From Promethearchaeota archaeon (GTDB lineage: Archaea; Asgardarchaeota; Odinarchaeia; Odinarchaeales; JBHLKK01), in contig JBHLPL010000044.1 of assembly GCA_048939465.1 (NCBI GenBank), positions 1 through 14,707 on the forward strand: a DNA stretch of 14,707 bases. The letters run 5' to 3'. This document shows, piece by piece, positions 1 to 14,707 of this stretch; the first letter of the stretch is position 1, and each line of letters starts with the position of its first letter. The notes under the pieces were generated by a model, which was not told the DNA's origin, made no database searches, and worked only from the letters and a program-made list of their open reading frames with translations. The translations under genes and the position numbers were made by a program.

Positions 1-278
1 AGAAGCGCTGTGTTATCAAAATATCCCCTTGAGTCAAACTTTATTCGTTTACTGATTTCTTTTTGTAGTTCACGTTCGTTGCTAAACGTCCGCAAGAGCT
101 CCTCAGCTCTTTTAGTCTTGGGGAGTATATGTCCTTTAACGTATCTGTTCAGAACAGTTATTGGGAGCCCGGTTGCTTTTGACAAATTATCATAGGTATG
201 GGTTTTCTTTAGCAACCTTAGCAACTCGACAGCTCTTATCCGCTTTTCAATGTTCTTTAGGTGAATATCTTCACTCAA
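1..278 (-). CDS. N-terminal part of an archaeal HTH + phosphoribosyltransferase (PurR-like) protein; runs off the window edge
   Basis: Not in the ORF track. Manual translation from TTG at 278 (GGAGG just upstream): MSEDIHLKNIEKRIRAVELLRLLKKTHTYDNLSKATGLPITVLNRYVKGHILPKTKRAEELL...IKFDSRGYFDNTALL, open to base 1. The LRLLKK.TY..LS..TGLPITVLNRYVKGH.LP helix-turn-helix is typical of this archaeal family. The PRT domain would lie outside the window. Confidence 0.75.
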   Translation of the reverse strand, partial: MSEDIHLKNIEKRIRAVELLRLLKKTHTYDNLSKATGLPITVLNRYVKGHILPKTKRAEELLRTFSNERELQKEISKRIKFDSRGYFDNTAL

Positions 279-496
279 AAATACTCCTCCTACCAATGCA
301 CATCTCTCATAACCTCTGAGTGGATTTTCCATATTAAATTCTTTACATTCTAAACCTTCTCTCAAGGTTTCAACTTACGATTAAAACACACCGGCTATGT
401 CCTTCGCAGAAACAATTTATATTATGATAACAATTGAAATATAGTGCTGCAAATCGTCGGCAAATGATTAAGGTTAACTCATAAAAAGCATCAATT

Positions 497-604
497 GGGC
501 CCGTGGCCTAGCCAGGATAGGGCACTGGCCTCCTAAGCCAGTAGATCTACTTAGAATCTCTAAGTGGGGCTGATTCGCCGGTTCAAATCCGGCCGGGCCC
601 GCCA
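497..604 (+). tRNA. trnR-CCT: tRNA-Arg(CCT) with a 30-nt intron at 46/47 (545-574)
   Basis: Acceptor GGGCCCG/CGGGCCC, anticodon arm CTGGC-CTCCTAA-GCCAG, T arm GCCGG-TTCAAAT-CCGGC, encoded CCA. BHB: central helix CAGT/GCTG, bulges AG|A and AT|T, intron stem TCTACTTAGA/TCTAAGTGGG. Mature length 78 nt. Confidence 0.93.
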
Positions 605-609
605 ACGTT

Positions 610-1296
610 TTAAATCCTTTCGAGCTTTTCCACGTGATCAGCATACCCCACATATACAATGTGGGCCAGACCCGAAAAGATACCATTCTCGATTACTCCT
701 GGGATGTTGTTCAATTCTCTTTCAAGTATTGATGGCTCATCGATCTTATTGAATTTTACATCAAGTATGAAATTACCATTATCAGTAATAACCGGCCCTA
801 GCTTTCGACTTGCGTTCCTTAGGCTTACGTTCCCTCCCATTTCCTGCATTTTTCTTTTTACGAAATTATTGGCAAATGGCAGCACTTCTACCGGAACAGG
901 AACTCCCCCTATATTCTCCGAAAGCTTGGATGAATCTACGACGATTATCAGCATTGTTGCAGCGGCACCGACAATCTTTTCCCTGGTTAAAGCCGCGCCG
1001 CCACCTTTTATCAGATTTAAAGCTCGATCCACTTCATCGGCCCCATCTATAGCAATATTCAGAGAAGGATATTCGTCCAGTGAAGTCAACGGTATCCCGT
1101 TCTCTATGAGTTGATGGGCTGCTTGATGTGAACTCGGGACTGCTGAAATGTTAATTCCGTCTCGCTTCACTCTTTCTCCTAGAAGATCAATTACGTGAGT
1201 TATTGTCGTTCCACTCCCAATTCCCACGATATCCCCTTCTTTAACATGTTTTATGGCTTCTTCTCCAGCTAATCTTTTGCCCTTCTCATTAGTCAA
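610..1296 (-). CDS. rpiA: ribose-5-phosphate isomerase A
   Basis: Motifs GIGSGTT, DGADEVD, IKGGGAALTREK, PVITDNGNFILD, IPGVIENGIF. Start chosen at TTG 1296 behind GGAGG; the ORF track extends to 1323. Confidence 0.96.
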   Translation of the reverse strand: MTNEKGKRLAGEEAIKHVKEGDIVGIGSGTTITHVIDLLGERVKRDGINISAVPSSHQAAHQLIENGIPLTSLDEYPSLNIAIDGADEVDRALNLIKGGGAALTREKIVGAAATMLIIVVDSSKLSENIGGVPVPVEVLPFANNFVKRKMQEMGGNVSLRNASRKLGPVITDNGNFILDVKFNKIDEPSILERELNNIPGVIENGIFSGLAHIVYVGYADHVEKLERI

Positions 1297-1425
1297 GTTC
1301 TCTGTCCCTCCGCAAGCGTTCATTTCTATTAAAGGAACCCTTTAAGTATGATTTACATTACAAAATATATCTATTATAAACAATTTTATATAGAGATAGG
1401 ACACAAAAGCCAAATAACCTAGGAC

Positions 1426-2004
1426 ATGAGTCTATTCAAACCGGTCTTTTCTCTTAGCGCTTTGAGGATTGAGAAGAAGATGAGTGATGAGACAATCCGC
1501 AAGAGTTGGCTTGAGAAACAAATAGAAACAGCAGCTAAGAGAGATGCTATGAGCCTTTCTCATAGATTATTTGATATTTTCTTTGGTGCTGGCTTTGTTA
1601 CTCTGTTCTTAATATACTTCCTTCTTCATTACTTTCTATCAACAGGATTTTTCACTTCAGGATTTGGAAGACCAGAATTCTTCTTATTCTTCGTTCCCGC
1701 GCTCCTCGGTTTAGGGATAACTATGATGAGAGGAATTGTTGGTCGAAAGAACGTTATACGTCCTTTTGAAGTATTTCAATTGGGTCTTAGTGCAGTTGGT
1801 GTTGCTTGGCTGTTAGCGGTTTTTCCATTTGATTTTTCTCATTTTGCTGATATTCTGCCGGCTTCCGTCCAGATCCACCTGCAGTGGTTATCCAGTGATA
1901 TTGTCAGGGTGTTTATGGTACTGATACTCATAGGGACCTCCGTTGCCACCACTTATAATGCTTTGTTATATACTAATGTGCGCCAAAAACTCTCCATGGT
2001 TTAA
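1426..2004 (+). CDS. hypothetical integral membrane protein (about 4 TM segments)
   Basis: 192-aa ORF with four hydrophobic stretches (FFGAGFVTLFLIYFLL; FFLFFVPALLGLGITMM; VFQLGLSAVGVAWLLAVF; IVRVFMVLILIGTSV). No family recognised. True start may be ATG 1480. Confidence 0.7.
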   Translation: MSLFKPVFSLSALRIEKKMSDETIRKSWLEKQIETAAKRDAMSLSHRLFDIFFGAGFVTLFLIYFLLHYFLSTGFFTSGFGRPEFFLFFVPALLGLGITMMRGIVGRKNVIRPFEVFQLGLSAVGVAWLLAVFPFDFSHFADILPASVQIHLQWLSSDIVRVFMVLILIGTSVATTYNALLYTNVRQKLSMV

Positions 2005-2067
2005 GAGAATACATTAGTATGCACATATCGAGATTTCCTGGGCTCATTCAGCATAGTTATTAGTAGC

Positions 2068-2117
2068 GCGAACTACCTCATCTTTTCCGACGGAGTCCTC
2101 TTGCGGAGAAGAAGATA
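2068..2117. repeat. copy 1 of a 50-bp dispersed hairpin repeat (copy 2 at 7414-7463)
   Basis: 41/50 identity to copy 2 (31/34 over the core TTTCCGAYGGAGTCYTCTTKCGGAGAAGAAGATA). Internal stem TCTTTTCCG/CGGAGAAGA. Confidence 0.8.
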
Positions 2118-2156
2118 GGCTTTTGCAGAAGTAGAACGTTGTCATAATCTTACGGG

Positions 2157-2250
2157 TGGAGCCTCGGAAGGGATTTGAACCCTCGACCAACGGCTAAATG
2201 GTGATCTTGCACTACCATGCCGCCGCTCCACCGGGCTGAGCTACCGAGGC
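2157..2250 (-). tRNA. trnT-GGT: tRNA-Thr(GGT) with a canonical 17-nt 37/38 intron (2196-2212)
   Basis: Reverse complement GCCTCGG...CCGAGGC-T-CCA (U73 fits Thr). Anticodon arm GCGGC-ATGGTA|A-GCCGT. BHB helix ATGG/CCAT, bulges TA|G and TT|A. Mature length 77 nt. Confidence 0.93.
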
Positions 2251-2282
2251 TCTGTGTATTTGTAATTTCCAGTTTCCGATGT

Positions 2283-2288
2283 TTTAAA
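2283..2288 (-). promoter_or_regulatory. putative TATA box of tRNA-Thr(GGT)
   Basis: AAAAGA-TTTAAA on the minus strand about 33-38 nt upstream of tRNA position 1; similar boxes precede tRNA-Met and tRNA-Pro. Confidence 0.5.
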
Positions 2289-2420
2289 TCTTTTGCTATT
2301 TCAAGAACTGCTTAGAATGGGTTCGATAAAACCGATAAGAAAACGATATTGTAAATTCTCAAGAGACGGAAACACTACACTGGCTGGCAAATCCTGATTG
2401 ACTGAACATTTGGGTTCCAA

Positions 2421-2948
2421 TTACTTATGTTGCCTTTGTTTGAGGTACTCTTCTTTTAATATATCAAACGCAACACTGTCGTAGTATTTCCCGGCACGCA
2501 TACCTACTCCTCGCTCTCTACCTGCGCCCCTCATACCGTATTCTTTTACTATATCGATAAGCCAACTATTCCATGAAGGTATCCAGACGGATGCACTGTT
2601 TTTTGCGTCAAATTCCATAAACAAGTAAGACAGAGCTAGGTCAATAGCCTCTATAACTGCTTTCTTGTGTTCTTCGTTATGATTTGGAATTAGGAGATTT
2701 ATTCCACTGTAGCTGGTATAAATTATAATCATCCCCAGAAGCTTTGATCTGTCCTTTTTCTCGATGAGCATCCTAACTTCATGACTCTGCTTTGACCAAT
2801 CTTTATATTTTTTCTCCATCTGGGGAACAGTCAAAGGTAATAATATGCCGTCAGTGCCTCTCAGCTTTGGATTGCTGTACCAAGTTCGTATTGTCTCAAG
2901 GTCAGATTGTTCAACTATTCTCAGATGTATTGTTTCTCCCTTAATCAT
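2421..2948 (-). CDS. GNAT (RimJ/RimL-like) family protein with degenerate acetyl-CoA motif
   Basis: MIKGETIHLRIVEQSDL..., ending G.YYDSVAFDILKEEY. Clear paralog of the upstream GNAT and overlaps its stop by 8 nt. Confidence 0.82.
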   Translation of the reverse strand: MIKGETIHLRIVEQSDLETIRTWYSNPKLRGTDGILLPLTVPQMEKKYKDWSKQSHEVRMLIEKKDRSKLLGMIIIYTSYSGINLLIPNHNEEHKKAVIEAIDLALSYLFMEFDAKNSASVWIPSWNSWLIDIVKEYGMRGAGRERGVGMRAGKYYDSVAFDILKEEYLKQRQHK

Positions 2949-3477
2949 TGTGATACATCTCCAAGTACTCCTCTCTTAGCATATCGTAGCAGAGTGCATC
3001 CTGCCACTCTCCATCTCTCATAAACCCTTTCCGTATCCTTACAGCCAGTTTAAATCCGAGAGACTCTGAAAGTTTTTGAGCAGATATATTCCAACCGCCG
3101 GTCCATAGTGATAATTTATGGAAATTCTCTTCAAGAAAACAGATTCCTAATAATAGTTGAATCGCTTCAGTCCCATATCCTCCTCTTCGGAACTTCTCTT
3201 CACCAATTACAATACCAATCTCTGCTGAGTTGAAATCTCCAATTTGATAACTCACTGAGCCAATTAACTCTCCAGTTTTCTTTAAGACTATGGACAATCT
3301 ACGTTTTTTGTCATCGGATGTGTTCATGAATCTTTCCTGCTCGAAACGCTCAGCAGACATCGGGCTGTACCCACCAATCCACACTCCTCTCATATCATAG
3401 TCGTTATACCATTCTCGGATTTTAGATAAATCGTCTATCTCTATAGCTCGTAGGAATACCCTTTCACCTTCAAGCAA
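2941..3477 (-). CDS. GNAT (RimJ/RimL-like) N-acetyltransferase
   Basis: LEGERVFLRAIEIDDL, AEIGIVIGEEKFRRGGYGTEA (motif A), N.SAQKLSESLGFKL, GEWQDALCYDMLREE. Start taken as TTG 3477 behind GGTGA; the ORF track gives 3489. Confidence 0.9.
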   Translation of the reverse strand: MLEGERVFLRAIEIDDLSKIREWYNDYDMRGVWIGGYSPMSAERFEQERFMNTSDDKKRRLSIVLKKTGELIGSVSYQIGDFNSAEIGIVIGEEKFRRGGYGTEAIQLLLGICFLEENFHKLSLWTGGWNISAQKLSESLGFKLAVRIRKGFMRDGEWQDALCYDMLREEYLEMYHND

Positions 3478-3714
3478 GTAAATCACCAAACAAAATACAT
3501 TAACTAATAGATTATGTAGGCTAGCTATTTAATTTGTATCGTTCAGTCAAATTTCGCCAGCATGCCAAGAACAGAACAATTTGACCTTGTTAAAATATGA
3601 GGTTCAAGAATTGGAATTAACACAGACTAATTTAAAAAAGTAAATCTTGCTCTATAAAACCCAAAAAACCACATCGTATCGAGTCAAGGAATATCAACAT
3701 CTCCGGATTTTTCC

Positions 3715-4065
3715 CTATTGGATGTTGACCCTCTCGATCAGATGTGGACGTTTTAGCGGTATGATTATGTTCAGCCGGCCATTTTCAAACTTGGCCTCTG
3801 CTCTATTGGCATCTACCGGGGGAATCAGAGAGTAGCATCCTCCAAGATCTAAATCGTCTCTGGATCCTTTTATCCAAAGGCCCTGCTCAGAGACCTCCAA
3901 ATCTATATCTTCTCTCTCAACTCTGGGTAGCTCGACTTGAATGTAATAATTCATACTATCGTGATCCATAAGTACTGTAGGATTAATTATCGATTTGTAA
4001 CAGCTTTGACTGTCATTATTAATGCAAGTTGTTGAATCTACCTCACACTTTGATTCTCCAGACAA
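3715..4065 (-). CDS. small heat shock protein (Hsp20/alpha-crystallin domain)
   Basis: YYIQVELPRVEREDIDLEV...VDANRAEAKFENGRLNIIIPLK. TTG start behind GGAGGTG. Confidence 0.85.
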   Translation of the reverse strand: MSGESKCEVDSTTCINNDSQSCYKSIINPTVLMDHDSMNYYIQVELPRVEREDIDLEVSEQGLWIKGSRDDLDLGGCYSLIPPVDANRAEAKFENGRLNIIIPLKRPHLIERVNIQ

Positions 4066-4199
4066 TATAACACCTCCTACAGTTAGTAAATCCGGAAATA
4101 TAAAAACTACAATAATGAAAAACAGAATTCAATTTTGAACTGAGATTCCTTTGCCGAGTAAGTCTTATTAGGAAAAAAAGGCTCAATAGCCTCTAGAGT

Positions 4200-4365
4200 G
4201 CGAGGGTACCCAAGCTAGGTCAAAGGGGCGGGTACAGTTGATATAACTGTCGCTAAACTTAAGATCCCGTAGCGTAGAAAGCTACTAGATATCCTAGGCT
4301 TGTGAAAGCTTTCGAGGGTTCGAATTGATAGGTTTCTCATCACGAAAATCCCTCCCCTCGCACCA
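4200..4365 (+). tRNA. trnL-TAA: tRNA-Leu(TAA) with three introns: 30/31 (4233-4256), variable arm (4278-4307), 59/60 (4325-4348)
   Basis: Acceptor GCGAGGG/CCCTCGC-A-CCA. Removing 24+30+24 nt gives an 88-nt tRNA with CGGGA-CTTAAGA-TCCCG, variable arm AGC-GTAG-GCT and GAGGG-TTCGAAT-CCCTC. BHB helices GGCG/CGCT and TTCG/CGAA are clean; the variable-arm helix is relaxed. Confidence 0.88.
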
Positions 4366-4454
4366 CTTCTGGCCTTTTTCTAGAGAAAGATTATTCTAGC
4401 ACAAAATTTCTTATTTGTATGCCACTCATCTGTTTTCATCTGAGGGATCCAACC

Positions 4455-5588
4455 ATGTCCGGATATAAGGTAACTCCCTGGGAAGTTGAAGGAGTAGTCG
4501 ATTATGATAAGCTTACTGAAGAGTTTGGAACACAGAAAATCGACCAAGACTTGCTTCAAAGAATAAGCAAGCTTACGGGCGAAGTTCACTTATACCTTAG
4601 AAGAGGATTCTTCTTTTCTCATAGAGATCTAGACAAGGCGTTGGACGCTTACGAGTCTGGGAGTGGATTCTTCCTGTACACAGGGCGAGGTCCCACTGGC
4701 GATATGCATCTCGGTCACCTAATTCCCTTTCTATTCTGCAAATGGCTTCAAGACAAATTCCAAGCAAACCTGTACGTACAGATAACAGATGATGAAAAAT
4801 TCCTTCATAAGAAACCCCTATCTTTGCGTAGGACCCGGAAGTATTCCTATGAAAACATTTTAGACATAATTGCCTGTGGTCTTAATCCCGACAAGACTTT
4901 CATTTTTCAAGACAGTGAGTATACAAATATCTACCCTCTTGCCACAAAAATCGCAAAACGGATAACCTTTTCTACTGCCAAGGCAGTGTTCGGTTTTACG
5001 AGTCAGACTAATATTGGTATGATCTTCTTTCCAGCAATTCAAGCTGTACCATGTTTCCTTGAAAAGAAACAATGTCTAATTCCTGCTGCCATTGATCAAG
5101 ATCCTTATTGGCGAATACAAAGAGATGTGGCGCCAAAGCTTGGTTATAAGAAAACTGCTGCAATACATAGTAAATTCGTGCCCAGTCTAGAAGGTCCAAA
5201 GGGTAAGATGAGTGCCAGTAAGAAAGAGACCGCAATCTATCTGACTGATACGCCCAAAGATGTGAGAATGAAAATACAAAAACATGCTTTCACTGGAGGT
5301 CAGCCTACTGTAAAGGAACAAAAGGAAAAAGGAGGAAATCCGGACATATGTACTGTCCAACAATGGCTTTCGATATTCATAGAACCTGATGATGAGGCCG
5401 TAAAAGAACAGTATATACGCTGCAAACAAGGGACGCTTCTCTGTGGAGAACACAAGGAACTACTCGCAGAGAAGCTAAGTGCTTTTCTGAATGGACACCA
5501 AAGGCGACGGGAGGACGCCAGAGAATTGGTTGAGACGTTTAAGCATGAAGGAAAATTGGCTCAGACGATGTGGGTCAAGAAGTGGTAG
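4455..5588 (+). CDS. trpS: tryptophanyl-tRNA synthetase (archaeal/eukaryal type)
   Basis: VTPWEVEG, LYTGRGP, HLGH (HIGH), ITDDEKFL, CLIPAAIDQDPYWR, KMSAS (KMSKS), HAFTGGQ. Start at ATG 4455; the ORF track gives 4419. Confidence 0.97.
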   Translation: MSGYKVTPWEVEGVVDYDKLTEEFGTQKIDQDLLQRISKLTGEVHLYLRRGFFFSHRDLDKALDAYESGSGFFLYTGRGPTGDMHLGHLIPFLFCKWLQDKFQANLYVQITDDEKFLHKKPLSLRRTRKYSYENILDIIACGLNPDKTFIFQDSEYTNIYPLATKIAKRITFSTAKAVFGFTSQTNIGMIFFPAIQAVPCFLEKKQCLIPAAIDQDPYWRIQRDVAPKLGYKKTAAIHSKFVPSLEGPKGKMSASKKETAIYLTDTPKDVRMKIQKHAFTGGQPTVKEQKEKGGNPDICTVQQWLSIFIEPDDEAVKEQYIRCKQGTLLCGEHKELLAEKLSAFLNGHQRRREDARELVETFKHEGKLAQTMWVKKW

Positions 5589-5602
5589 ACTAAGGCAACA
5601 AG

Positions 5603-5612
5603 TTTTTTAAAT
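5603..5612 (+). promoter_or_regulatory. putative TATA box of tRNA-Met
   Basis: TTTTTTAAAT 26-35 nt upstream of tRNA position 1. Confidence 0.5.
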
Positions 5613-5637
5613 TATGAATAAGTGATAGTATAGGCGC

Positions 5638-5824
5638 GCCGAGGTGGCTCAGCCTGGTTAGAGCGCCGGACTAAGAACGGGCGATACTCATAATCTTAGA
5701 AGAATCGGGGTTCAGATGAGCCATCCGGAAACGGATGGTACAGAGGGATCATGCGCCTGAAGTCGCGGGTTCGAATCGTCCTGAGAACTCTTCTCTTGGC
5801 GAGACAGGCCCGCCCTCGGCACCA
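5638..5824 (+). tRNA. trnM-CAT: elongator tRNA-Met(CAT) with four putative introns: 30/31 (5670-5685), 37/38 (5693-5722), 45/46 (5731-5761), T-loop 59/60 or 60/61 (about 5776-5807)
   Basis: Acceptor GCCGAGG/CCTCGGC-A-CCA (GCC start fits elongator Met, not initiator or Ile2). Removing 16+30+31+32 nt from 187 nt gives a 78-nt cloverleaf: CCGGA-CTCATAA-TCCGG, AAGTC, GCGGG-TTCGAAN-CCCGC. Confidence 0.85.
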
Positions 5825-5916
5825 ATTACCACTTCTTCTAATCAAATATTTTATATTTGTTAAATATTTAATATGCTCATGTCCAAGAGAGTCTCAAAAA
5901 TTTGGGGTGTCGGGCA

Positions 5917-7161
5917 ATGGGCTATACGTTCTTGACACTCGACGATGTAAACGTTTCTGGCAGAAGTGTCCTAGTTAGAGTAGACATTAACTCTCCGATT
6001 AGTCCCAGAAATGGAAAGATTCTGGACATCTCTCGAATGAGAGCAATACAAGACACACTTAATGATTTGAAACCTGCAAGAGTTGTGCTTCTGGCGCATC
6101 AGAGTCGACCCGGCAAAAGTGATTTCACAACGCTTAGGCCGCATGCTAAGGTCCTCAGGACGCTTACAGGCGGTCGTGTAAGGTTTGTTGAGGATATCTT
6201 TGGACCTACGGCAAGAGATGCGATTAAATCGACCAACATCGGTGAAATCTTACTTCTGGAAAATGTTCGTTTCTATTCCGAGGAGAATATAGAGGTTCCG
6301 CCAGAAAACTTGGTCAAGACTCACTTGGTTAGGATACTGTCTCCGTATTTCGATTTGTTTGTAAATGATGCATTTCCTGCCGCGCATAGGTCTCATCCAT
6401 CGTTGGTGGGATTTGCAGAGGTTTTGCCGACAGTAGCAGGACGTGTTATGGAACGTGAGTTGAACGCCCTAAACAAGAGTCTGAATCCAGATAGACCCTG
6501 TGCTTTTGTTATTGGTGGAAGTAAGGTCTATACAAAACTTAAGATCATCGAAAACATATTGAAGAATGGTAAGGCTGATAAAATCCTTGTTGGAGGCCTT
6601 TTGACACACATCTTCCTTCAAGCTGTTGGCAGAGATATTGGCAAGGTCAATGAGAAAGCTGTGGCAGAATACGGAAAACTCTTGGACCACGCTAAAAAGC
6701 TTATTAAAAAGCATGAGTCTGTAATAGAAATCCCTACAGATGTTGGCATTGACAAGGATGACGAAAGAATTAATATTTCCACCGACGAGCTACCGTCAGA
6801 TCACCAGATCTTGGATGTCGGTCCAAACACGGTTGATAAATATATAGATATCATTAACGCTTCTCAAACTGTTGTTGCAAACGGACCTTTGGGCGTTTTT
6901 GAAAGAAACGATTTTGCCTTCGGAACCAAGAAGATAGTTGAAGCCATGGCTACACACAATGAAACTACTATTGTTGGCGGGGGCGAATTAGGGGCTCTTA
7001 TCTACACTCTTGGGCTTGACAGTAAACTGAGTCATGTGAGTACAGGTGGCGGTGCAACAATATCTCTGCTCTCTGGTGAGCAATTGCCGGTGATTGCCGC
7101 TCTAGAACGTGCGTCCAAAAGATTCCGACAAGCAACCCGCAAAAAACTTAAAAAAACTTAA
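5917..7161 (+). CDS. pgk: phosphoglycerate kinase (archaeal type)
   Basis: LVRVDINSP, LAHQSRPG, LLENVRF, FVNDAFPAAHRSHPS, GGSKV, VANGPLGVFE, HVSTGGGA. Start at ATG 5917. Confidence 0.97.
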   Translation: MGYTFLTLDDVNVSGRSVLVRVDINSPISPRNGKILDISRMRAIQDTLNDLKPARVVLLAHQSRPGKSDFTTLRPHAKVLRTLTGGRVRFVEDIFGPTARDAIKSTNIGEILLLENVRFYSEENIEVPPENLVKTHLVRILSPYFDLFVNDAFPAAHRSHPSLVGFAEVLPTVAGRVMERELNALNKSLNPDRPCAFVIGGSKVYTKLKIIENILKNGKADKILVGGLLTHIFLQAVGRDIGKVNEKAVAEYGKLLDHAKKLIKKHESVIEIPTDVGIDKDDERINISTDELPSDHQILDVGPNTVDKYIDIINASQTVVANGPLGVFERNDFAFGTKKIVEAMATHNETTIVGGGELGALIYTLGLDSKLSHVSTGGGATISLLSGEQLPVIAALERASKRFRQATRKKLKKT

Positions 7162-7219
7162 TGTACCTTCTTATTCAATATCTTGATGAGAACAGCTAGG
7201 TCATATCCATCAATGGAGA

Positions 7220-7351
7220 GCCCCGGTGGCTTAGCCCGGTAGAGCAGCGGACTTGTAGGTCACGTTAGGCTTGGCTAAGAAATCCGCCGATTAGTGGTAA
7301 TTTACCATCATTAAGCGGAAGTCAAGGGTTCAAATCCCTTCCGGGGCTCCA
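7220..7351 (+). tRNA. trnT-TGT: tRNA-Thr(TGT) with two introns: 37/38 (7258-7281) and 45/46 (7290-7320)
   Basis: GCCCCGG/CCGGGGC-T-CCA. Anticodon arm GCGGA-CTTGTA|A-TCCGC. BHB helices CTTG/TAAG and CCGC/GCGG. Mature length 77 nt. Confidence 0.92.
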
Positions 7352-7413
7352 TCATTTGGAAAATCGGATTTTTATGCACCTTACATGGATCTTCATTGAA
7401 AAGGATCTTGCCG

Positions 7414-7463
7414 GTGAACTACGCCACTATTTCCGATGGAGTCTTCTTTCGGAGAAGAAGATA
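7414..7463. repeat. copy 2 of the 50-bp dispersed hairpin repeat
   Basis: 41/50 identical to 2068-2117, same orientation on the + strand. Stem TTTCCGA/TCGGAGA. Confidence 0.8.
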
Positions 7464-7466
7464 AAG

Positions 7467-7474
7467 TTTTAAAT
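7467..7474 (+). promoter_or_regulatory. putative TATA box of tRNA-Pro
   Basis: AAAG-TTTTAAAT 29-36 nt upstream of tRNA position 1. Confidence 0.5.
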
Positions 7475-7502
7475 TTGGATTACATCCAGTAGATTACCAA
7501 GT

Positions 7503-7640
7503 GGGGCGGTGGTCTAGCTTGGTATGATACAAGATTTGGGAGTGTCTCACATAACGTGTGATGCCGGCAAATCTTGTGGTCAGGAGTTCGAATCGAAAGG
7601 GCGTTACTACTTTTTCGAGGAATTCTCCTCCGCCCCACCA
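7503..7640 (+). tRNA. trnP-TGG: tRNA-Pro(TGG) with two introns: 37/38 (7541-7570) and 59/60 (7593-7623)
   Basis: GGGGCGG/CCGCCCC-A-CCA. Anticodon arm CAAGA-TTTGGG|A-TCTTG, T arm AGGAG/CTCCT. Both introns have good hairpins and relaxed (3 of 4 pairs) central helices. Mature length 77 nt. Confidence 0.9.
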
Positions 7641-7728
7641 ACTCCTTGATTTAATCTTTCATGATCCCGTGTCTTGGCTCGATATGTTTTTATTGAAATT
7701 CTGACTAAGACCTTCTTTGTGATATCCA

Positions 7729-8697
7729 ATGAGTGATGATATTGGTATTTGGGTTGAGAAATATCGCCCAAGAACGCTAAAAGACATAATCAATCAAACG
7801 GAGATAGTAGATAGGCTAAAGCACTTTGCAAACACAAGATCTATGCCGCACCTGATCTTTGCTGGCCCTCCCGGTACCGGAAAGACTACTGCTGCTTTAG
7901 CGCTGGCACACGATCTATTCGGTGACAACTATCGGCAGAATATGTTAGAACTGAATGCGAGCGATACCAGAGGGATCGATGTTATAAGAACGAGAGTGAA
8001 GGACTTTGCCCGCGTGTCGGGCTATGGCGAAGTACCCTTCAAATTAATGATTCTAGATGAAGCAGACAATATGACTGCAGATGCTCAACAAGCGTTAAGG
8101 AGAACGATGGAGCAATATACGCGAAATACCAGATTTATACTTGACTGCAACTACTCCAGTAAAATCATAGAGCCAATTCAATCACGCACTGTAGTCTTCA
8201 GGTTCACGCCGTTAAGCAATGAGGATATTACCAAACAGCTCGGGAATATAGCAAAGAGCGAAAGCGTGGATCTTACTCCTGAAGGAACTTCTGCAATTCT
8301 ATACGTTGCTGGCGGAGATATGCGAAAGGCCATCAACACTCTGCAGGCGGCATCTGCGTTTTCAGGAAGTGTTGGAGCGGATGTTGTCTACAAAGTTACT
8401 GGCAAGGCAAGGCCTGAGGAAATTGAATCAATGATTAATCTTGCATTACAGGGAGAGTTCATTGAATCAAGAGAAAAACTCAGAGAATTACTAATAAGAT
8501 ACGGTCTTTCTGGTGTTGACGTAATAAGACAGATCCACAAGGCCCTTTTTGTCCTTGACATCCCCGAAGACCTGAGGGTAAGTCTTGCTGATAAGACTGG
8601 AGAGATTGATTTTCGGTTAACTGAAGGTGCAAATGAGGAAATTCAGTTAAACGCCCTTCTGGCTTTCTGTGCTCTCCTAGGAAGCAAGAAAGATTAG
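7729..8697 (+). CDS. rfcS: replication factor C small subunit
   Basis: WVEKYRP, GPPGTGKT (Walker A), LELNASD, ILDEAD (Walker B), AQQALRRTME, IQSR, GDMRKAINTLQ. No intein. Confidence 0.97.
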   Translation: MSDDIGIWVEKYRPRTLKDIINQTEIVDRLKHFANTRSMPHLIFAGPPGTGKTTAALALAHDLFGDNYRQNMLELNASDTRGIDVIRTRVKDFARVSGYGEVPFKLMILDEADNMTADAQQALRRTMEQYTRNTRFILDCNYSSKIIEPIQSRTVVFRFTPLSNEDITKQLGNIAKSESVDLTPEGTSAILYVAGGDMRKAINTLQAASAFSGSVGADVVYKVTGKARPEEIESMINLALQGEFIESREKLRELLIRYGLSGVDVIRQIHKALFVLDIPEDLRVSLADKTGEIDFRLTEGANEEIQLNALLAFCALLGSKKD

Positions 8698-8706
8698 TCT
8701 CCTCTA

Positions 8707-9528
8707 TTATTCTTCCATTCTTAGGGAACTGAATGCACTCAGGAATGTTTGGTGAACCCGCATTCTAATCTGATAGTCTCTGGCTACCTGTCGCAAGTAT
8801 TCTCTAATCTCCTCCAAGGCGATTCTATTAACTGCAAATGAAAAAGGATATTCGATATTGTACAGGATTAGTCCCCGTGAGGAAGCGGGTTGTACATCCT
8901 TGGTTGGGGAGCTGGACGGATTCAAAAGTGTTCTTAGCTCCTCCAGAGGCATGATGCCTTTTCCAATATGCAGAAGCGTCGTCACGATCTTTCGTATCAT
9001 TTTCCAGAGAAATCTCTTTCCCTTAAAATCAAAAACAACGAAATCACCTTGCTTCTGCAACTTAACTTCCAAAAGAGTACAAATCGTGTTGTCTTTCTTA
9101 TTCGGCTTAGATAGCTTTTGAAAATCGTGGGTACCTTCCAGTAGTGATGCTCCTTTTATCATTTCATCCAGATTCTCTCCATCGTACGGTATGATATATC
9201 TATAATGCTTGTATATGGCCTCTTTTCTAGGATTGAATTTCTCTGGAACCTCAGATATCGCCCACGTTTTGATGTCTTTAGGAAGAAGACTATTAATCAG
9301 TGGGATTATCGGAGTCTGAGCTGATGAAAAACTGACTACTTGAGAAACCGCTGAGACTTCTCTGTCCGTTCTACTTGCAGAAACATATCTTGCCTTCCTT
9401 AGGTCCTCAACAATCTTCAATTTCTTAAGAACTCTTAGAAGCTCTCCTTCAATTGTAGACAGATCTGGTTGACGCTGGAATCCGTGATAGTTAAGTCCAA
9501 TGTAGAACAATTTGATTGCATAGCGCAT
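8707..9528 (-). CDS. truA: tRNA pseudouridine(38-40) synthase
   Basis: YHGFQRQP, ASRTD (catalytic Asp), EGTHDF, FLWKMIRKIV. Confidence 0.94.
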   Translation of the reverse strand: MRYAIKLFYIGLNYHGFQRQPDLSTIEGELLRVLKKLKIVEDLRKARYVSASRTDREVSAVSQVVSFSSAQTPIIPLINSLLPKDIKTWAISEVPEKFNPRKEAIYKHYRYIIPYDGENLDEMIKGASLLEGTHDFQKLSKPNKKDNTICTLLEVKLQKQGDFVVFDFKGKRFLWKMIRKIVTTLLHIGKGIMPLEELRTLLNPSSSPTKDVQPASSRGLILYNIEYPFSFAVNRIALEEIREYLRQVARDYQIRMRVHQTFLSAFSSLRMEE

Positions 9529-9608
9529 CTCGGTTTCACCAAGGAGTCAGTCGACGGAACAAGTTGAATAAGCTAAATCAACGCTTGTTTAAGTCAAACC
9601 GATCTGAC
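9529..9608 (-). promoter_or_regulatory. structured 5' leader of truA: long hairpin plus SD-sequestering hairpin
   Basis: Minus strand: GTCAG/CTGAC, CGG/CCG, AACAAG/CTTGTT and TTGA/TCAA nested stems, then CTTGGT-GAA-ACCGAG directly before ATG. TTAAAT at 9633-9628. Confidence 0.45.
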
Positions 9609-9638
9609 GGAACCATTCAAAGTAGGCATTTAAGAGAT

Positions 9639-10172
9639 TCAGATTCGCTTTTCCTTAAGATGCTTCATTATATGACCAATCTCGGGGATTATTAATTGTT
9701 CCAATGCGAGTCTTGCAGCATCGGGTGAACCTGGCAAGCAGAATATCACAGTTTCTTTTATAATACCTGCTATTGCCCTTGTTAGTATAGTTGCCGCACC
9801 AATTTCCTTGAAGCTTATCTGTCGTAGAAGCTCCCCGAAACCGGGAATCTTCTTTTCTAGAAGGGGTTCTATCGATTCCACGGTCACATCCCTCGGTGAG
9901 AGCCCTGTCCCCCCTGTTGTTATAATTGCTGGCACCGGAATACCTAATAACTCCTCTACAACTCTCAGAATATGTGCCTTGCTATCAGGAACGCATTCTA
10001 TGGATTCTACCTTATGTCCCGCATCCGTCAGGAGTTGAACCATGATGGGGGTGGATCTATCACTGGACTCCTTTCCAGATTTCAACTCCTCGTATCTCGA
10101 GTCGCTTACAACAACAACGGCAAATGGTATGTTCTTGGGTGCCCCTTTCTTGTGTTTTGCTGGTATTGACAT
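9639..10172 (-). CDS. moaB: molybdenum cofactor biosynthesis protein B (MoaB/MogA family)
   Basis: VVVVSDSR, ITTGGTGLSPRDVTVE, IPGFGELLR, IFCLPGSPDA. Confidence 0.93.
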   Translation of the reverse strand: MSIPAKHKKGAPKNIPFAVVVVSDSRYEELKSGKESSDRSTPIMVQLLTDAGHKVESIECVPDSKAHILRVVEELLGIPVPAIITTGGTGLSPRDVTVESIEPLLEKKIPGFGELLRQISFKEIGAATILTRAIAGIIKETVIFCLPGSPDAARLALEQLIIPEIGHIMKHLKEKRI

Positions 10173-10181
10173 CAATCTCGC

Positions 10182-10637
10182 CTATTTTCTCTTCTCTTTT
10201 CTTATTACGCGTATGTCTGTTATTGCAGTGTTTGGATATTGACCGAACTCGTCTTTTTCATACTTTTTTACCATATCCCAAATTGTTAATAACGCTGCAC
10301 TGAGAGATGTTAGCGCCTCCATTTCCACCCCTGTTTTGCCTACGCTCACGACTTCGCTCGTTACTGTGAGGCCGTTGTCTTCTATTTTCGTGACTATTGA
10401 GACCTTAGTTATAGGTATGGGATGACATAGAGGCACAATGATCGGTGTTTGCTTTGCTGCCAGGATGGCCGCAGTCTTCGCCACCGCCAGCACGTTGCCC
10501 TTCTCCACATTTCCCTTTCTGATTCTTATCACCGTTTCTGGTCGAAGTCTAATATGTCCGCTTGCTCGGGCGATCCTTGTCAAATCAGCCTTTCGAGTTA
10601 TCTCAACCATTCTAACTTGATCCTTTTCCTCTTCCAT
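10182..10637 (-). CDS. moaC: cyclic pyranopterin monophosphate synthase
   Basis: VRMVEIT.K...R.A.ASG, KGNVLAVA, IVPLCHPIPI, GKTGVEMEAL, TIWDMVK. Confidence 0.96.
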   Translation of the reverse strand: MEEEKDQVRMVEITRKADLTRIARASGHIRLRPETVIRIRKGNVEKGNVLAVAKTAAILAAKQTPIIVPLCHPIPITKVSIVTKIEDNGLTVTSEVVSVGKTGVEMEALTSLSAALLTIWDMVKKYEKDEFGQYPNTAITDIRVIRKEKRK

Positions 10638-10721
10638 GTTTATGCCTCTCCTATCTTTACGTCCAAAAATGAAGATGGGCTAAATTCATCTCGGAGATAC
10701 TTCCTAAGAATTCTTCTCACC

Positions 10722-11456
10722 TTATCTTCCCGGAACTACTTTTTCGGATTTCTCTTCTATGCGTTCTCTGTCGAATGCGTCCCTGTGTTTCATTTTCATT
10801 TTTCTACTCAACATCTGCTGGATCTTCTTTTGCATAAGAGTGCGTTCCTTAACCAAGTCTGTGATTTTGCTTTGGAAGTCACCAAGACGGGTTGATAAAC
10901 CTTCCAGTCTTCTATTTAAACTCTGAATGGTTAGGTCCTTTCTTCTTATACTCGCTTTCAGTCTTGAGAGTCTTGAGAGCAGGATTTCTCTCTCTTTTTC
11001 TAGCTCTGTAACATTTAATCTCAGAATTCGTATCTCTTCAATTACCGGGTTGATTTCTGGGTAGTACCTTCCAGTTAATTGCGTGATCGAGGCTAGTTGC
11101 TCATTTATGGTATCGAAGTTCCTACCAAAAAAACTGAGGGCTCTATCGGTATCTAGCTCCTTGTTAGTTAATATTCTATAGTTATTCTCCAATGTGTCTA
11201 TGGCTTCTTGATACTGCGTTTGTGTTTCTTCACTTCTCTGGTACTCCAGTGTTTCGGCAGCTACCCTCCTAAGTCCCTTTAGGGATCCAGCAAGTTGCCT
11301 GATATAGCTTGCTATCTGACCCCTTTGTTCTATAGCCTCATCTTTTTCTAAGGTCTTCAATCTTGAGCTGGCCCCATCCAACATTCTTATCAATAGCTTT
11401 ACCCTGCTTAGCCTTTCCTCAAAAGGTAGAGTCAATATTTCTCCCCTCGGGGTCAC
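10722..11456 (-). CDS. hypothetical coiled-coil protein
   Basis: 244-aa ORF, all-helical composition, long heptad-like stretch from about residue 135 to 220. GTG start uncertain; no family recognised. Confidence 0.7.
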   Translation of the reverse strand: MTPRGEILTLPFEERLSRVKLLIRMLDGASSRLKTLEKDEAIEQRGQIASYIRQLAGSLKGLRRVAAETLEYQRSEETQTQYQEAIDTLENNYRILTNKELDTDRALSFFGRNFDTINEQLASITQLTGRYYPEINPVIEEIRILRLNVTELEKEREILLSRLSRLKASIRRKDLTIQSLNRRLEGLSTRLGDFQSKITDLVKERTLMQKKIQQMLSRKMKMKHRDAFDRERIEEKSEKVVPGR

Positions 11457-11607
11457 CCAATAAATAGGTGGATCTTCATTCTTTAATTCTCACTCTTATG
11501 ATAGCCTCTCTTACTAAATAAGAATTGCTTTTCTCTTATATGGTATCTGAAATCTGTCAGGTGGGAGCTTATCCGAACCAAAAAATCGCCCAATGAGCGT
11601 GAATGCT

Positions 11608-12240
11608 CTATCGTAGCATGCTCAGTGCCTTTCTACGTATTTTCGTCAAAAAGCGCGTTGGCCGACCGTATACTTCTGTCCGGTTTTTTCGTATAGCTTC
11701 CAATATGTCCTCAACATCTGTCTCATCAATTATTGTATATGCATTTCCTACAGCTGTGCCAATGTGTGCATCACTTCCAGCAACAGTGGAATATCCTTCT
11801 TTTTCAGCGGCTCTTCTGGCAAGTCTGTTTGCAAATGGTAAAACCAAGTTTGAATTGTAAACCTCTACAGCATCGAATTTTAGCGCTTTCATCCTAAAGC
11901 CTATGCTATTTCTCAAAAGGTCATATGGATGCGGTATAACTGCTATTCCTCCTCTATCTCTTATCAAGTCAATTGTTTCCTGTGCACTCCTTCCTTCTGG
12001 CAATCTTTGCGTTATACCTAATCCCAGTATTTCACCATCCTTTGTAGATACCTCTGTCCCCGGAATAACTGTAAGCTCTTGGTTATTTCTCATTGCTTGA
12101 AGAGCTCCAACAGTTGTGTTGTGATCGGTTATTGCGATCCCGTCGAGTTTCTTGCTTATCGCTATTTTGACTATTGTCTTTGGTGAATCTAAGCCACACT
12201 TTGAATAGTGCGTATGTATGTGGAGGTCGAACTTTGCCAT
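11608..12240 (-). CDS. PHP-domain metal-dependent phosphoesterase
   Basis: DLHIHTHYS, AITDHN, PGTEVST..G.IL, IPHPY, AVEVYNS, AGSDAH. Confidence 0.92.
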   Translation of the reverse strand: MAKFDLHIHTHYSKCGLDSPKTIVKIAISKKLDGIAITDHNTTVGALQAMRNNQELTVIPGTEVSTKDGEILGLGITQRLPEGRSAQETIDLIRDRGGIAVIPHPYDLLRNSIGFRMKALKFDAVEVYNSNLVLPFANRLARRAAEKEGYSTVAGSDAHIGTAVGNAYTIIDETDVEDILEAIRKNRTEVYGRPTRFLTKIRRKALSMLR

Positions 12241-12299
12241 TTTCTACATCTCTGGAGATTCATCGCAATTTTCAATGTGAATTTTTTACCCTTCTTATT

Positions 12300-13928
12300 T
12301 CAATCTGATAGCGCCATTATCAATGCTTTCTTAAATTCATTTAATGTGGCCCGATCCGTACGTTCTGCCATTTTGTTTGGAAGACATATGAATCGAATTC
12401 CTCTAAGATCAGAGCCTTTTCTAAAAGCCTCGACTAATTCATTTCCATACTTATCCCAATTGTTATAAAAAACAACCGTTTTGTATATGTGTGTTGAAAC
12501 GTACTCCTCAAAGGCATTTGATATCGTCTCAACACTTTCGTATTGGTACTCATCTAATACCTCGTGCTGCGAGAGTGGATATATATCTTCCAACTCTCGT
12601 GGAGTGAGTCCAAATAGCATGGAAACTGTAAAAACATGAAATCTTTCCCTTTCTTTTGCAGAGAATTCTTCGAATATTTCTTGATATCTCCGATGTTCGA
12701 TGGATCGTCTGTAGGGCTTGGTTCTTGGCTCAGGTAAAACTACCATAATATCGGTTTTTTCTGGTTTTTCATATCGCTTGAGTCTCTCTATGTGTCGAAT
12801 CGTCTCAGGTCTCGATAGGGAGGACGTTCCACAATAGAATATCCCTCTTTTTTTTATCAATGGAGTGAATCTTTCAAGGTATTTAGAGTATTTCTTGAGC
12901 CTATATAGGCTTTGAAGGAGTTTGGGATGAGCTCTGCTCCTCATTTCCACGAACTCCCAAAGCCTCCCGTCATAGATTGCTTGTCTTATCTTCCTAATCT
13001 CGTTTAGTGAGACATACAGGTTGTGTCTCGAAATAACTATCTCCCGTTCGTTGGGCGGAAGTTGATTTATCTCTTGTGGGTCAATTCTTCGGCAGACAGG
13101 ACACAAGCAAATGGATTCTTTTAGATTTCCCATGCGTACCGTCCCTTGGTTTGTCATATATCGTCCCTGTGCTGCATACAAAGCATAAGCTGCGGAGTCA
13201 AAAACGTCACACCCAAGCAATACGGCAAGTGAAAACATCATTGGGTGGCCAGCACCGAAAAGATGTACTGGTCTCTCCAGTGGTAAATTCATTTTCGCAC
13301 TCATGATTAATTCCACAATCTGATCAAACCGGTATTGTTCCATTAGCTGGGTTGGACTCCCGATAGCATGTATGTCGAAATCAAGCTTCCCCATCTCTTC
13401 CGCACATAGTTGGACCAAATCCAGATTAGTGCCTCCCTGTATTGGCCCTACCCATAAAAGATCCTCCTTAGTTCTTATCGCTTCACTTTCTTTAGCTCTT
13501 CTTATGGTCTCCATCACTGTGTCTCTGGCGTGGCTATACGAGGCGCTACCTCCAGTTGGAACATCGAGTATTACTGCGATATCAGAGTCGATCTTCTCCT
13601 GAAATGTGATGATTTCGGATGAAGAAACATCAACTTGACCATAGACTAGCAGCTGATAGGCTCCTGAATCTGTCATAATCGATTTTGAAAAATCAAGCAA
13701 TCTATGGACGGTCTTCTTGATGGCTTCGCATCTCAAGTTCTTATAAAGAATGTACGCATTCGTGATTATTGCATCACATCCAAATTCTCTTTCAAGTTCT
13801 TCCGGCGGGACAGTTATTTTCATCGGATTTACTACTGGCAACAGTACTGGTGTTCTTATTTTTCCTGTTTTGGTACGTATCGTTCCAGTGCGTCCCATTA
13901 TGTCTCTTTCTTTGATTTCAAAGGCCAT
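12300..13928 (-). CDS. tgtA: archaeal tRNA-guanine(15) transglycosylase (archaeosine pathway)
   Basis: TPVLLPVVNP, IITNAYI, MTDSGAYQL, GPIQGG, PVHLFGAGHP, DVFDSAAY, zinc site CLCPVC...RHNL. No C-terminal PUA domain evident. Start at ATG 13928; the ORF track gives 13937. Confidence 0.95.
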   Translation of the reverse strand: MAFEIKERDIMGRTGTIRTKTGKIRTPVLLPVVNPMKITVPPEELEREFGCDAIITNAYILYKNLRCEAIKKTVHRLLDFSKSIMTDSGAYQLLVYGQVDVSSSEIITFQEKIDSDIAVILDVPTGGSASYSHARDTVMETIRRAKESEAIRTKEDLLWVGPIQGGTNLDLVQLCAEEMGKLDFDIHAIGSPTQLMEQYRFDQIVELIMSAKMNLPLERPVHLFGAGHPMMFSLAVLLGCDVFDSAAYALYAAQGRYMTNQGTVRMGNLKESICLCPVCRRIDPQEINQLPPNEREIVISRHNLYVSLNEIRKIRQAIYDGRLWEFVEMRSRAHPKLLQSLYRLKKYSKYLERFTPLIKKRGIFYCGTSSLSRPETIRHIERLKRYEKPEKTDIMVVLPEPRTKPYRRSIEHRRYQEIFEEFSAKERERFHVFTVSMLFGLTPRELEDIYPLSQHEVLDEYQYESVETISNAFEEYVSTHIYKTVVFYNNWDKYGNELVEAFRKGSDLRGIRFICLPNKMAERTDRATLNEFKKALIMALSD

Positions 13929-14004
13929 CCTCTGCACCTTTTGTGGATTTCTCGTTATTTTTTTACCACTAACAAAAAAAGAATAACACTATTAGAGCAA
14001 AGCT

Positions 14005-14436
14005 CTAATCCGCTTCTTTTTCTTCAAAATAGTGTTCATAGACTTTTCTCACGCGTTCCGCAATAGGTCCTGTTCCCTCTACGCCTTCTTCTGTAACTCG
14101 TATTTTGTTAAGTATTGATATCACTCTGGCATCTTCTAGGTACTTAACTTCGCCTGGGGGAAATATTTTTTGAAGTTCGTCGGCCAAACCTCCTAGGTCA
14201 AAGGGCTCTTCTGTTTTTACAAGCTCGACGATGTTGTTTCCATTTATAAAGACCCTATGAGCCATCTTCCCTTCATTGTCCTTTGCATCGGCAAGAACCA
14301 GGCTCAGGGTATTCACATCGAACCCTTTTAATACGCCGCTGTATGTCTTTCCTGAAGTCATAATCACATTCACTGCCGATTCCAGTAATGAAACCAACTC
14401 TCTAAAGAAGCGTCTACTTGATGCACTTTCAGACAT
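14005..14436 (-). CDS. Sm-like archaeal protein with C-terminal extension (SmAP3 type)
   Basis: Sm fold V.V....GK.YSGVLKGFD..TLSLVL.DA......RVFING.NI, followed by an about 65-aa C-terminal domain (PFDLGGLA..L...F....VKY...A.VI.I.NKI.V...GV.GTGP.AERV) characteristic of SmAP3. Confidence 0.88.
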   Translation of the reverse strand: MSESASSRRFFRELVSLLESAVNVIMTSGKTYSGVLKGFDVNTLSLVLADAKDNEGKMAHRVFINGNNIVELVKTEEPFDLGGLADELQKIFPPGEVKYLEDARVISILNKIRVTEEGVEGTGPIAERVRKVYEHYFEEKEAD

Positions 14437-14707
14437 TCCCTTTCCCTTCTCTACCGCCTTTTGTACTGATCAAATCTTTTTGGCTGGATAAGAATAGAGA
14501 GTAAACACGTATTTTACAGTTGCCATTTTCATGTTCAAATATCACACTTCCAACAAAAGAGAATCCCAAAATAGCCTTTTGACAGGGGGCCATTTCGCTT
14601 AGACAATACTTTTGTAGCCTAGAGTCGCTTGTTATCCCGCAGAAATTGCTCTTGATGCAAATGTAAAAGAAACCCTAGCTGCTTTGATACCGGTTTTGGA
14701 AAAGCAG

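Follow-up and report, generated by a model that had tools for sequence, protein, structure and literature searches.

Background

Introns at position 59/60, Asgard tRNA genes with multiple introns and a G at position 60 of elongator tRNA-Met are all already on record. In vitro, the EndA of ARMAN-2 cleaves 59/60 introns that have relaxed bulge-helix-bulge (BHB) motifs (PMC3239211). In S. tokodaii, EndA is guided by the flanking helices when it cuts a tRNA-Met motif whose central helix contains mismatches, and for one tRNA-Met of this species prediction from the BHB gave incorrect borders (PMC4307357). A Crenarchaea-specific loop allows EndA to cleave relaxed motifs that lie at non-standard sites (PMC3241643). 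Asgard tRNA genes can contain several introns (up to five are reported), with the T arm among the commonest sites (PMC11291895; preprint 10.64898/2026.10.13.758758). The relaxed BHB class of the recent Asgard census has three of four central pairs, and the text of that preprint makes no mention of Odinarchaeia, tRNA-Met or G60 (10.64898/2026.10.13.758758). In P. furiosus a G60 preceded by A59 is found in the tRNAs for Ile, elongator Met and Thr; this combination is termed rare, and alignments of sequenced tRNAs from the species also list G60 (Wolff et al. 2020, PMC7668247).

Here we describe the T-loop intron (intron 4) of an elongator tRNA-Met gene in an Odinarchaeales genome. The gene lies in a stretch of 14,707 nucleotides (contig JBHLPL010000044.1, positions 1 to 14,707), which is referred to as the window. 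Intron 4 resembles those of ARMAN-2 tRNA-Cys and tRNA-Pro in its 59/60 site, its short hairpin and its use of the T stem as the exon helix, as well as in the cut sites, which in both bulges follow the second base and are predicted here but were established in vitro there (PMC3239211). It differs from them in having two Watson-Crick central pairs, a G as the third base of the 3' bulge, and an (alpha-beta)2 rather than an epsilon2 EndA. The isotype and the A59-G60 dinucleotide are those of the elongator tRNA-Met of P. furiosus and other Thermococcales (Wolff et al. 2020, PMC7668247), although the T loop contains no intron there, whereas here G60 doubles as a base of the splice motif. Like the reported multi-intron Asgard tRNAs, of which many have relaxed motifs and an (alpha-beta)2 EndA (PMC11291895; 10.64898/2026.10.13.758758), the gene is heavily interrupted; its T-loop junction, however, falls below the relaxed class of the preprint. 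Central mismatches with strong flanking helices that would set the cuts are shared with the intron of S. tokodaii tRNA-Met(CAU-1), but that intron belongs to the region of the anticodon arm and has experimentally mapped borders, while those given here are predicted (PMC4307357).

Results

An elongator tRNA-Met gene with four introns

The features of the gene are collected in Table 1. Neither ARAGORN nor Rfam detects the unspliced gene, which is broken by the four inserts. When these are cut out in silico, ARAGORN recognizes a complete cloverleaf, tRNA-Met(cat). The anticodon is CAT, and the acceptor has G1-C72, C2-G71, C3-G70 and A73, which we take to be elongator Met traits; with its G60 and with orthologs that have G or A at 60, the gene belongs to the purine-60 elongator tRNAs-Met. 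No other elongator tRNA-Met was found in this 91% complete genome, which also contains an ESCRT-II (Vps25) domain, as fits an Asgard archaeon. The 5' border of intron 1 is fixed by orthologs in another family of the same order (f2; L129-L132).

Table 1. Features of the elongator tRNA-Met gene and its T-loop intron (positions in the window)
Feature	Position	Strand	Remarks
TATA-box-like element	5604-5611	+	roughly 27-34 bases before the start of the tRNA; promoter role probable, judged from sequence
Elongator tRNA-Met(CAT) gene	5638-5824	+	contains four introns and encodes CCA; 78 nt after in-silico splicing
Intron 1, site 30/31	5670-5685	+	16 nt; central helix 4/4, exon-side helix present
Intron 2, canonical site 37/38	5693-5722	+	30 nt; full hBHBh' after removal of intron 1
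Intron 3, site 45/46	5731-5761	+	31 nt; relaxed motif, central pairs 3/4, no exon helix
T-stem 5' strand (49-53) and T-loop 54-59	5765-5775	+	
Exon strand of intron 4 central helix	5770-5773	+	
Intron 4 5' bulge	5774-5776	+	
Intron 4, site 59/60	5776-5807	+	32 nt
Intron 4 intron helix	5777-5780 with 5798-5801	+	
Intron 4 inner hairpin	5783-5787 with 5791-5795	+	
Intron 4 central-helix strand	5802-5805	+	
Intron 4 3' bulge	5806-5808	+	
G60 of mature tRNA (predicted)	5808	+	last of the three 3'-bulge bases
T-stem 3' strand (61-65), acceptor 3' strand, A73, CCA	5809-5824	+	

The splice register of the T-loop intron

The initial annotation had pointed to a conflict in the T loop, in which a cut at 59/60 yields G60 and a U60 calls for a register without a BHB. 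Its description of the sequence at 5770-5813 holds: T54 is 5770, A59 is 5775, T5776 is the first base of the insert, and G5808 directly precedes C61 (5809). The spacing is also the same as in the tRNA-Pro(TGG) of the window. We enumerated all pairs of cuts around the T loop, including 58/59, 60/61, 61/62 and unequal cuts. Among the registers that keep a 7-nt T loop, 59/60 is the only one with both flanking helices, namely an exon helix (the T stem) of 5/5 pairs and an intron helix of four. Two 3-nt bulges lie four positions apart between these helices. The central helix consists of T.C, T-A, C-G and G.A; its two Watson-Crick pairs are indeed as few as had been proposed, and the product has G60. 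The registers that keep U60, 60/61 and 61/62, have no motif, each with one central pair and at most one flanking pair, again in agreement with the annotation.

The candidate registers 58/59, 60/61 and 61/62 and the unequal cuts were rejected, as none gives a motif with a 7-nt loop; two slides of the same helix lead to loops of 5 or 9 nt. Pairing of the end of intron 4 with intron 3 was also considered, and the register result is unchanged with the other introns present or removed. When the intron was shuffled, 0.2-1.3% of 100,000 shuffles matched the 59/60 arrangement (a plain shuffle, with criteria chosen after the motif had been seen). The arrangement exceeds chance. Under the strict hBHBh' definition, which takes all four central pairs to be Watson-Crick or G-U, the junction falls short at 2/4. 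It also lies outside the relaxed three-of-four class (preprint 10.64898/2026.10.13.758758), unless G57.A is counted as a third pair.

Other T-loop introns of the genome

A genome scan found T-loop inserts in 13 genes, and 59/60 is the best fit in all 13. Seven have 4/4 central pairs, four have 3/4 with a purine-purine opposition at 57, and two, Leu-GAG (G000:C15, minus strand) and Met, have 2/4 with a G.A. A G.A or A.G at 57 recurs in six of the 13. Other T-loop introns show any of the four bases after A59, and those of this genome A, G or T; because the first intron base varies in this way, T5776 carries no weight for a U60. All the other 12 genes with a T-loop intron, and all 27 found without one, have T60, and only Met has G60. 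The expectation of a pyrimidine at 60 is sound for tRNAs generally and for the other 39 tRNA genes found here, but it does not extend to archaeal elongator tRNA-Met.

The Met motif is the weakest predicted of the 13, both by pair count and by computed energy. Its BHB conformer lies 9.1 kcal/mol above the lowest-energy fold, compared with 0-5.3 for the other 12. The difference arises because U54 and U55 are able to pair with G5808 and G5807, which lengthens the T stem. The competing fold conceals the 3' bulge. The cost is 8.6 and 5.7 kcal/mol for the strain variants, and 1.0-1.6 kcal/mol for orthologs with G60 in another Asgard family (f12). On these computed energies the Met junction is probably spliced more slowly; we do not call it unspliced, because the energy model gives no credit for G.A pairs or for enzyme binding.

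G60 in orthologs and in other archaea

A pattern for elongator tRNA-Met matched 22 of 400 Asgard genomes; it needs an uninterrupted D arm, so the matches are not a census. One of them (L111) has G60 without a T-loop intron. In seven genomes of family f12 (L118-L124) a 59/60 intron with a 4/4 central helix is found and G is the third base of the 3' bulge; there the base after A59 varies among A, C and T, while G60 stays. Families f2, f13, f15 and f20 have T60. The nearest family with the gene is f2, which belongs to the same order and whose four insert sites coincide with those of the gene described here (L129-L132), so G60 and T60 alternate inside one order. No match for the tRNA-Met gene was obtained in two genomes of the same genus (78% and 82% complete), and a locus search anchored on TrpRS returned distant relatives only.

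A search for T arms with G60 in 50 named genomes outside Asgard returned five tRNAs, all of them elongator Met of Thermococcales. In a Thermococcales sample, G60 without a T-loop intron was present in 58 of 59 matches, which represent one lineage and not independent kin. Among 67 readable elongator Met genes in a Thermoproteota sample (counted by hand), position 60 is T in 41, A in 16, G in six and C in four, and is therefore a purine in 22. These ortholog samples, together with the published P. furiosus alignments (PMC7668247), indicate that position 60 is variable in elongator tRNA-Met and that purines recur in several lineages. G60 here is a normal, published trait of elongator tRNA-Met in many archaea. 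The initial annotation had offered four explanations, an unusual mature base, editing, atypical cleavage or a decaying intron. Only the first is supported, and in part: the mature base would be G60, but intron-less orthologs and PMC7668247 show that it is not unusual for this isotype.

Strain variation

Contigs identical to the window over 5751-5870 are present in the sequencing runs X5/X6. A second haplotype there has changes at 5781, 5788-5790 and 5805 (to T) among those listed, besides six differences none of which starts from a G; every change from a G counted for X5/X6 lies at a position other than 5808. T5805 makes the central strand the same as that of Leu-GAG. The third haplotype (X7/X9, from another study) differs at 5776 (to C), 5781, 5787 and 5790, and these are its only four changes across the gene. 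G5803, G5807 and G5808 are unchanged in all contigs compared, over three haplotypes; the comparison amounts to about two data sets, since X5 and X6 have the same depths and are probably one, and X7/X9 come from one study. All listed differences within the gene are in introns. Those in intron 4 affect its first base, bases of the hairpin loop, and 5781 and 5805, which are unpaired; the change at 5787 maintains pairing, and the intron helix is preserved.

The splicing enzymes

The EndA alpha subunit (204 aa) is closest to that of A. pernix (E 1.5e-44) and has intact catalytic motifs (Tyr, His and Lys). It aligns without gaps across the Crenarchaea-specific loop of A. pernix, including Lys44 (K44). 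A paralogue (beta) of 191 aa lacks the His. RtcB is also encoded, so the genome has both a predicted broad-specificity EndA and an RNA ligase. Two RtcB genes were found, at G000:C31:2961-5708 (minus strand) and C78:6301-7587 (plus strand); the former is part of a 973-aa frame whose RtcB domain comes in two separate parts, the pattern expected from an intein.

Discussion

We see intron 4 as an archaeal tRNA intron of the ordinary kind, located where T-loop introns usually are, whose splice signal is unusually weak. We are highly confident that the gene encodes G60 and is spliced at 59/60 by means of a relaxed BHB, so that neither editing nor odd cutting is needed. The precursor would fold as a relaxed BHB in which the T stem serves as the exon helix and the intron hairpin as the inner helix, and in which positions 54-57 face 5802-5805 through two Watson-Crick pairs, one G.A and one mismatch between pyrimidines. 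The flanking helices would make up for the weak central helix. An (alpha-beta)2 EndA would then cut after A59 (5775/5776) and after G5807, and RtcB would join the exons to a mature tRNA with A59-G60, as in Thermococcales and two other Asgard families. The register analysis, the G60 orthologs, the conservation across strains and the presence of the enzymes together point to these cuts in the cell and to a G60 tRNA.

A first alternative is a shifted cut at 60/61 that removes 5777-5808 and leaves U60. In its favour, T5776 would then complete a T loop of the most frequent type, T60 is found in the sister family f2, and predicted borders have failed for an S. tokodaii tRNA-Met; nevertheless, 60/61 retains a single central pair without a flanking helix, and 61/62 is no better. 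The base after A59 varies elsewhere, and is C in one strain, as for an intron base. In family f12 the same shift would place A, C or T at 60 and throw away a 4/4 motif. We regard such a cut as highly improbable, and the atypical cleavage suggested earlier is not needed, as the shifted registers lack a motif. Equally superfluous is an editing or repair step that turns a spliced G60 into U. All that speaks for it is that tRNAs in general favour a pyrimidine at this position, and since intron-less genes of many archaea and sequenced P. furiosus tRNAs carry G60, there is nothing to correct. We know of no G-to-U tRNA editing activity in archaea, and this explanation is extremely improbable.

The weakness of the motif bears on two further readings. 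An intron in decay, or one spliced too poorly for a working tRNA in a gene turning into a pseudogene, would fit the lowest rank among the 13 introns by pairs and computed energy, and the fold that hides the 3' bulge. It is at odds with the status of the gene as the only elongator tRNA-Met found in a genome 91% complete, with listed strain differences that are confined to introns and leave the intron helix intact, with the equally weak centre of Leu-GAG and with the same four intron positions in family f2. Decay, as the initial annotation had it, is very unlikely on this evidence and not needed. It is also unlikely, if somewhat less so, that the two-pair helix and the G60-driven fold form a deliberately slow or conditional step that gates the supply of the single elongator tRNA-Met, for instance through T-loop modification, prior removal of the other introns, or recognition of the flanking helices only. 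That an error at 5805-5808 masks a normal motif and T60 is conceivable for a metagenome assembly. The contigs of three haplotypes keep G5803, G5807 and G5808, and this constancy refutes such an error, short of a systematic one common to all these contigs; its chance is practically negligible.

The significance of a G60 gene spliced at 59/60 is modest and mostly practical. The Met and Leu-GAG junctions lie below the published relaxed BHB class, yet they are found in tRNAs that are apparently single-copy and needed, and they are therefore ready substrates for determining the minimum central pairing of the Asgard (alpha-beta)2 EndA. For annotators, U60 should not be forced when T-loop introns of tRNA-Met are placed.

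Additional observations

In family f13 the T-loop intron (40-43 nt; L113 on the minus strand and L114 on the plus strand, about 90-165 bases into the gene) contains copies of exon sequence from the same gene. One of them, 14 nt long and matching positions 38-51, extends across its 3' end, and another of 8 nt is located at its start. These copies may have originated by local duplication, or may be a consequence of helix constraints. The 5' part of a second tRNA-Met (L133, G037:C169), at a distance of about 2.3 kb from L113, breaks off behind the T loop, and no 3' acceptor strand lies near enough to complete it; this part could be an integration scar or contain a very long insert.

Several other tRNA genes lie in the window. 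ARAGORN and Rfam both miss a tRNA with several inserts at 4200-4365 (plus strand), probably Leu-TAA, whose 59/60 intron (4325-4348) has a textbook 4/4 BHB. The tRNA-Pro(TGG) at 7503-7640 (plus strand), which ARAGORN misses, has an anticodon-loop intron and a 59/60 intron (7593-7623) with 3/4 central pairs and a G.A. The tRNA-Pro(TGG) that ARAGORN reports at 2157-2250 (minus strand) becomes a tRNA-Thr(GGT) when a 17-nt intron at the canonical 37/38 site (2196-2212) is removed, with an unusual A at position 32. A tRNA-Arg(CCT) with one variable-region insert is found at 497-601 and a tRNA-Val(TAC) with two inserts at 7220-7351, both on the plus strand. Between molybdenum-cofactor genes and a PHP-like gene, a 244-aa ORF (10722-11456, minus strand) looks rich in coiled coil.
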